The notes beneath the pieces were generated by a model. The model worked only from the letters and a program-made list of their open reading frames with translations. It did not search any database and was not told where the DNA came from. Below are positions 7,691 through 7,992 of a stretch of 9,704 nt of DNA, in pieces (the first letter of the stretch is position 1; each line of letters begins with the position of its first letter). Where the stretch lies: the IMG/VR virus record IMGVR_UViG_2537562013_000016, positions 1-9,704 of that record. The stretch is one strand, 5' to 3'. Made by a program: the position numbers and the translations under genes. This DNA is from a virus (taxonomy: Duplodnaviria; Heunggongvirae; Uroviricota; Caudoviricetes).

Positions 7691-7992
7691 AAGGTGAACA
7701 ATCCACTGTTCACCCTTCACCGTATATTCACCCGTTATCACACTGAAATTAAAAGAGAAAAACGAAAGGTGAACAGTGTGAACAATCAAATCAAAAAAAA
7801 CTTTTTTTCTTCCTGTGTGATTTTCAGTGCGGAGGATTAATCACCGGTATGAGTCACACCGGCAGAATGCCGGAGGTGAAGAATCGAATGTTCACCCTTC
7901 ACCCATTATTCACCACCTATCCAACTGAAATAAAAGGAGAAAACAGAAAGGTGAACAGTGTGAACAGTTCTTCCGAAAAAAAATTTTTTTCC
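7691..7992. repeat. crr-like cis replication region: two ~119-bp direct repeats (7691-7809 and 7874-7992, period 183 bp), each with direct and inverted TGTTCACC/GGTGAACA iterons and an A8-T8 tract
   Basis: Unit 1 iterons: GGTGAACA 7693-7700, TGTTCACC 7707-7714, CTTCACC 7715-7721, TATTCACC 7725-7732, GGTGAACA 7768-7775, TGTGAACA 7777-7784. Unit 2: 7875-7882, 7889-7896, 7897-7903, 7907-7914, 7950-7957, 7959-7966. Matches the two 120-bp repeats described for P4 crr. Confidence 0.8.

Follow-up and report, generated by a model that had tools for sequence, protein, structure and literature searches.

The stretch of DNA analysed here (hereafter, the window) comprises 9,704 bp and carries the genes psu, delta, sid, vis/alpA, epsilon, and alpha in P4 order, together with a cos site and the CI (C4) RNA, as in a P4-like satellite. 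Positions 654–7989 matched the phage P4 genome (X51522 / NC_001609) in a single piece, at 98.1% identity and in reverse orientation. Between the replication origin and alpha lie the immunity region (C4/CI RNA), orf88/vis, epsilon, orf151, and cnr. The features on which the following account relies are these:

2865–2968, plus strand: ori, with five exact direct type 1 iterons TGTTCACC at 10–11-bp spacing within each group
2918–2925, minus strand: degenerate inverted ori iteron, TGTTCAAC
2969–3062, no strand assigned: AT-rich stretch of ~27% G+C in the composition profile, adjoining the iterons
3066–3104, minus strand: three 10-bp direct repeats, CTGGAAGGGT / CTCAAAGGGT / TCTGAAGGAC, in place of the P4 "ori type 2 repeats"
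3572–3624, 3585–3662, and 3770–3857: c4-a1b1 targets, isrK, and the C4 antisense RNA, respectively, which make up the P4 immunity RNA system (Rfam)
4973–5293, plus strand: orf106/cnr homologue (DUF5375)
5308–7641, plus strand: alpha, with a zinc-ribbon/Toprim primase, a D5-type SF3 helicase, and a C-terminal winged-helix origin-binding domain
7649–7676, plus strand: intrinsic terminator of alpha (P4 "talpha"), a 7-bp GC-rich stem and a T8 run, 22 bp before crr
7688–7809, plus strand: crr unit 1, corresponding to P4 4471–4590, "crr 120bp direct repeat"
7693 (−), 7707 (+), 7725 (+, TATTCACC), 7768 (−), and 7777 (−, TGTTCACA): iterons of crr unit 1
7870–7991, plus strand: crr unit 2, corresponding to P4 4291–4410
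7875 (−, TCTTCACC), 7889 (+), 7907 (+, TATTCACC), 7950 (−), and 7959 (−, TGTTCACA): iterons of crr unit 2
8120–8141, plus strand: attR core, 22 bases equal to the 3′ end of tRNA-Sec (selC), forming the right end of the satellite as aligned to strain F8111-1SC3

The product of alpha is a 777-aa protein with matches to the Pfam families Zn_Ribbon_Prim, Toprim_3, D5_N, DUF5906, and Pox_D5, and it is 99% identical to the alpha protein of P4. Since its residues 671–770 are 100% identical to PDB 1KA8, the solved winged-helix origin-binding domain of P4 alpha, its DNA-binding specificity should be that of P4 alpha. According to the account in PMC4234260, P4 alpha binds the repeats of the P4 origin through the winged-helix domain, after which unwinding and priming follow; PMC8628076, citing Ziegelin et al. 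1993, describes alpha as essential for P4 DNA replication and as possessing primase and helicase activities, and origin recognition is named in the title of the work cited there.

The exact octamer TGTTCACC was found ten times on the two strands of the window, against 0.36 copies expected from dinucleotide-preserving shuffles, among which the maximum was 2 copies and none of 200 reached ten. All ten copies fell inside two clusters, ori and crr, and no exact copy was present outside these clusters on either strand of the 9,704 bp. An initial sequence-only reading of this DNA had counted five direct copies at 2865–2968, and we located them at 2865, 2875, 2940, 2951, and 2961; the exact copies of the second cluster are at 7693 (−), 7707 (+), 7768 (−), 7889 (+), and 7950 (−). 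When one mismatch was allowed, each crr unit contained five iteron-like sites and the ori cluster gained a sixth site, inverted, at 2918–2925. This sixth iteron had been overlooked in the sequence-only reading, as had the "type 2" repeats of the P4 ori.

The ori cluster (2865–2968) aligned to P4 9310–9413, which is annotated as "ori type 1 repeat" inside an "origin of DNA replication" that spans 9086–9809 in the P4 records and has six repeats of type 1 and three of type 2. In the pairwise alignment five of the six ori iterons were the same as in P4, the five direct ones being unchanged. The adjoining AT-rich stretch at 2969–3062 is, from its composition, likely the DNA-unwinding region of ori. 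Sites of the activator type TGT-N12-ACA were present at 2730–2747 and 2768–2785 on the sid side and at 3127–3144 on the P_LL side, a pattern that is not rare by chance, five matches being reached in 16 of 200 shuffles. Following the promoter assignment of P4, we take ori to be placed between divergent late promoters.

The inverted ori iteron at 2918–2925 reads GTTGAACA in the window where P4 has GGTGAACA, a change in the conserved core. The prophage of E. coli 14EC007, 99.7% identical to the window's element, has the intact GGTGAACA form, and none of the aligned relatives listed in the ori alignment carried the GTTGAACA change, most of them having the intact form.

For the second cluster, the P4 records give a "crr (cis required region for replication)" at 4291–4590, within which they mark two features named "crr 120bp direct repeat", each enclosing five that are labelled "ori type 1 repeat". 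All ten iteron-like sites of the window's crr were the same as in P4 in the pairwise alignment, and the region as a whole had a mean column identity of 96% over 353 columns, flanks included. The initial labelling of the two clusters as ori-like and crr-like was thereby borne out, both aligning base for base with the annotated P4 regions. The units of the window are spaced 182 bp from start to start, with a 60-bp unique spacer between them, whereas the annotation of P4 gives 120-bp repeats at a spacing of 180 bp, the difference arising from two 1-bp insertions. The earlier description of two near-identical 119-bp units 183 bp apart was right as to the two direct repeats and off by a base or so in the lengths; "near-identical" was too generous, because the units are 80% identical without gaps and 89% identical in mean column identity when aligned. 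Direct and inverted octamers had been described in each unit, and both orientations were indeed found in both, but the palindromic tracts given as A8-T8 in fact read A8-C-T7 (7793–7808) and A8-T7 (7976–7990).

The distance between the clusters, 4826 bp from 2865 to 7691, compares with 4823 bp in P4 (9413 to 4590), in agreement with the ~4.8 kb that had been proposed as the separation in both. The two clusters had also been said to flank alpha, but ori does not, being situated 2.3 kb upstream of the gene.

P4 (X51522 / NC_001609 / X05623) and the window thus share the same gene order, a pair of ~120-bp crr units, 60 bp apart, that follow the alpha terminator directly, the 4.8-kb ori–crr separation, and an identical alpha DNA-binding domain. 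They differ in the sixth, inverted ori iteron, which is intact in P4 and mutated in the window; in the ori region, where P4 has the "type 2 repeats" and the window has three unrelated 10-bp repeats; and in the att/int module, which is leuX-type in P4, while the module flanking the window's element is selC-type. In sequence, the window contains these parts of a P4-type replicon: the primase, the SF3 helicase, and the origin-binding C-terminal winged helix joined in alpha; type 1 iterons clustered at ori, on the upstream side of the leftward (alpha) operon; and, just downstream of alpha, two ~120-bp direct repeats with iterons in both orientations. Judged by sequence comparison, the identification of the element as a P4-like satellite prophage, and of its clusters as P4-type ori and crr, is correct. 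The ori/crr system is already known, having been defined decades ago by genetics and biochemistry and annotated in the P4 GenBank records, and the finding itself, a correct recognition of the textbook P4 ori/crr, adds little that is new.

To place the two clusters in a wider comparison, one genome per bacterial species was scanned for relatives of alpha, yielding 80 loci with 57–99% protein identity in Enterobacter, Citrobacter, Klebsiella, Kluyvera, Raoultella, Edwardsiella, Pantoea, Pectobacterium, Serratia, Yersinia, and other genera of the Enterobacterales. Around these genes TGTTCACC occurred 50–310 bp after the alpha stop codon and 1.6–2.6 kb before the alpha start codon, with only 0–5 copies elsewhere in the ~14 kb of each locus. 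An unbiased count of 7-mers returned GTGAACA/TGTTCAC as the top word common to both zones in most loci with 78–86% alpha identity. An alignment of 32 distinct crr units recovered one inverted iteron followed by three direct ones; beyond an AT-rich spacer came a pair of neighbouring inverted iterons and then an A7-N-T5-7 tract. The iterons and the tract were conserved and the spacers varied. In the alignment of 42 distinct ori regions, a conserved A-rich spacer separated two direct iterons from an inverted one, after which came three more direct iterons. These alignments show the iterons at both sites to be conserved in position and architecture and under purifying selection.

The number of crr units was itself variable. 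About half of the relatives with 80–86% alpha identity had a single unit (loci L009–L059, 35–185 bp after the alpha stop codon), and the others in this range had two units at offsets of 166–180 bp, in several genera. The comparative data therefore amount to a phylogenetic footprint of the crr unit, giving its iteron order and the conserved A7-N-T5-7 tract, and they reveal that single-unit variants are common. In a group of Pantoea and Erwinia loci (L047–L057, L075, and L081; ~68% alpha identity), the word common to the two zones was of the CTTCACC type and not TGTTCAC, which hints that iteron and initiator specificity may co-evolve. Within E. coli, the crr sequence (window 7680–7995) was present in 1078 of 5426 complete genomes, at 1321 places and up to 4 per genome; all of these matches were chromosomal, and among the five matches listed, none coincided with an annotated feature.

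We consider it very probable that ori (2865–2968 plus the AT-rich DNA) and crr (7688–7991) are the two alpha-bound sites that together serve a P4-type satellite phage-plasmid as its bipartite replication apparatus in cis. The C-terminal winged helix of alpha would bind type 1 iterons, with the core TGTTCAC, at both ori and crr; initiation at ori would depend, in cis, on alpha being bound at crr, 4.8 kb further along the same DNA, and crr would act on ori most likely through an alpha-mediated ori–crr loop. Alpha would then open the AT-rich DNA, serve as the helicase, and lay primers, and the host polymerase would then copy the excised circle bidirectionally. We infer the alpha binding, the cis requirement, the looping, and the order of events from the literature on P4; the conservation of the iterons at both sites in relatives lends indirect support to the binding and to the cis requirement. 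In that phage crr is needed in cis and exerts its effect from a distance, probably because alpha loops the DNA between it and ori, and replication proceeds bidirectionally from ori.

Iteron-controlled plasmid replicons with distant auxiliary iterons are represented by R6K, with its gamma ori and pi-mediated looping, and by P1, with oriR and incA. The system proposed here resembles them in having short direct repeats for its own initiator, an AT-rich region beside the iterons, and a second iteron cluster kilobases away that would communicate with the origin. It is unlike them in that its initiator is a primase–helicase fusion replacing the host DnaA/DnaB/DnaG functions and in that its distant site would be needed positively, in cis, where theirs would act mainly as a brake. 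The archaeal plasmid pRN1 offers another parallel. Its ORF904, like alpha, joins a primase, an SF3 helicase, and a C-terminal winged helix in one protein, and pRN1, too, has a cis region downstream of the replication gene that it cannot do without (PMC2777425, PMC4234260). It departs from P4-type elements in its primase, which is of the prim/pol kind, and in its origin, a stem-loop lacking iterons.

The comparison with plasmids also suggests another role for crr, that of a mainly negative copy-number or incompatibility locus that titrates alpha or "handcuffs" ori in the manner of P1 incA or the R6K iteron arrays. Iterons in both orientations, far from the origin and beside the initiator gene, do resemble plasmid control loci, and a homologue of cnr (orf106), which we take to be the copy-number regulator that restrains alpha in P4, is situated just upstream of alpha; moreover, the dosage of sites varies, because about half of the relatives manage with one crr unit. 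We nevertheless regard this role as improbable, given that it conflicts with both the name and the history of crr: the P4 record designates it the cis required region for replication, and classical deletion work on P4 reportedly found it necessary and not inhibitory. The position and architecture of crr were, furthermore, conserved in every close relative examined, as expected of an essential site. Positive and negative roles of crr are not mutually exclusive and can coexist.

There is only a very slight chance that the two 120-bp units arose by recent tandem duplication or form a CRISPR-like array, and that they lack a function of their own. Two direct repeats about a 60-bp unique spacer might suggest this at first sight, and the sequence-only reading had warned of such a confusion. 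CRISPR arrays have at least three repeats of ~23–50 bp separated by unique spacers of similar length and are usually accompanied by cas genes, whereas here a ~120-bp repeat occurs only twice, P4 genes fill the window with no cas-like ORFs among them, and Tandem Repeats Finder reported no CRISPR-like array in the window, only iteron periodicities of 9–11 bp. As for a recent duplication, the units are 89% identical to each other and matched unit for unit in P4, so that the duplication predates the split between the element and P4, and two-unit relatives with offsets of 166–180 bp are spread over several genera. That the conserved columns of crr are the putative initiator-binding octamers argues against a lack of function. 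Recognising crr for what it is averts annotations as "unknown repeats" and false CRISPR calls.

P4 homology stops at 7989, exactly at the outer edge of crr, and is followed by 130 bp of AT-rich DNA, crr being the last feature before attR. No tRNA gene was found in the window, only the 3′ fragment of selC. Prophages 98–99.7% identical to the window over positions 1–8141 lie between selC and setC in other E. coli, with their own integrase beside selC, and the matches to them stop at 8141. The location of these prophages and the copy of the selC 3′ end therefore indicate that the element is a P4 relative integrated at selC and not at leuX; together with the end of P4 homology at the edge of crr, the selC attR also indicates that the replication and att/int modules are separate mosaic blocks. 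In practice, crr marks the alpha-side end of P4-like satellites.

We give next to no credence to the view that the repeats at 7688–7991 are arm-type sites of the integration module (the P arm of attP) and not replication sites, in spite of their lying only 130 bp from the att core at 8120–8141, because crr is 96% common to the leuX-type P4 and the selC-type element, with similarity lost exactly at its outer edge, and was thus kept while int/att differ, so that it travels with alpha and not with the integrase module, and because the annotated arm repeats of P4 have a different sequence and the octamer itself is found again at ori, 4.8 kb from crr.

Within the otherwise closely matching replication region, positions 3000–3149 formed a divergence hot-spot, containing 38 of the 160 differences from P4 over 7.3 kb, and constituted the only strongly diverged patch. 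The P4 type 2 repeats at this spot, TTAAAGCAA / TTAAAGCCA / TTAAAGTCA, which are on the other strand at 10-bp spacing, fit the Cox-box consensus of P2, TTAAA(G/C)NC(A/C) (PMC3936717), and Cox boxes upstream of P4 P_LL mediate the activation of P4 by P2 Cox (PMC3936717). Taking an array to be several copies of this consensus at 10–11-bp spacing, we found no Cox box in window 2980–3160, even with one mismatch allowed. A local alignment of the P4 patch with the Cox-box stretch of P2 Pe-Pc scored 31, a value reached in none of 200 shuffles. Both versions of the patch were frequent among the 5426 E. coli genomes, with counts of 280 and 439, and relatives in other genera had yet other 10–11-bp repeats at the type 2 spot in the ori alignment.

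Several comparisons with potential helpers were made. The Cox protein of WPhi reportedly fails to activate P4 and binds a 12-nt direct repeat (PMC5009727), and the window repeat CTGGAAGGGTC resembles the WPhi Pe-Pc repeat CTAGAAGGGAC, a likeness that is not statistically secure. When the window patch was aligned to the Pe-Pc regions of 11 P2-like phages of different Cox classes, the best match, to ESSI2_ev239, had a score of 22, reached in 10 of 200 shuffles and thus not significant. By shared 6-mers, WPhi was the best of the 11 helper phages (8 against 2.8 expected; P = 0.02, uncorrected for 11 tests) in a test of low power, since the P4/P2 control fails in it. Forty other satellites compared with the 11 helpers gave no consistent match inside Pe-Pc, and a BLAST search of phages with the 47-bp patch returned nothing useful, the P4-to-P2 positive control failing by BLAST as well.

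Two further explanations of the patch were rejected: co-variation of the diverged type 2 repeats with Vis/orf88, given that Vis is 99% identical to that of P4, and a role of the window's repeats at this site as integrase arm sites, given that they are unlike both the GGGGGCA-type arm repeats of P4 and the att-proximal repeats of the window. We offer tentatively, as a possibility, that the patch beside ori is a swappable helper-sensing cassette holding Cox sites for the P2-like helper of each satellite, in which an exchange of ~50 bp would switch specificity. The replacement of the Cox boxes may, as an unproven lead, mean a different helper specificity, and the patch could serve as a handle on the helper specificity of P4-like satellites.

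Beyond the right end of the satellite, positions 8142–9704 belong to a different, neighbouring selC-associated island. Relative to the intact 396-aa copy in E. coli F8111-1SC3, its tyrosine integrase gene (8439–9630) carries one inserted base (a G near 9234), which breaks it into two overlapping ORFs; the gene is either a pseudogene or the product of a sequencing error. The window thus presents the rare "integrase next to alpha" arrangement, for which PMC8628076 holds neighbouring elements responsible.

At the opposite end, the window begins inside a gene of the int–cos hotspot (1–521, minus strand). The cos region at 630–695 is 90–95% identical to that of P2-like phages, and identity with P4 starts at 654. 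In the 14EC007 prophage (L086 4902–6521), two hotspot genes, for neither of which a Pfam match was found, correspond to the PADLOC candidate defence system PDC-M18 (A, 1.9e-34; B, 3.3e-16), and they replace the gop/beta/cII genes of P4.
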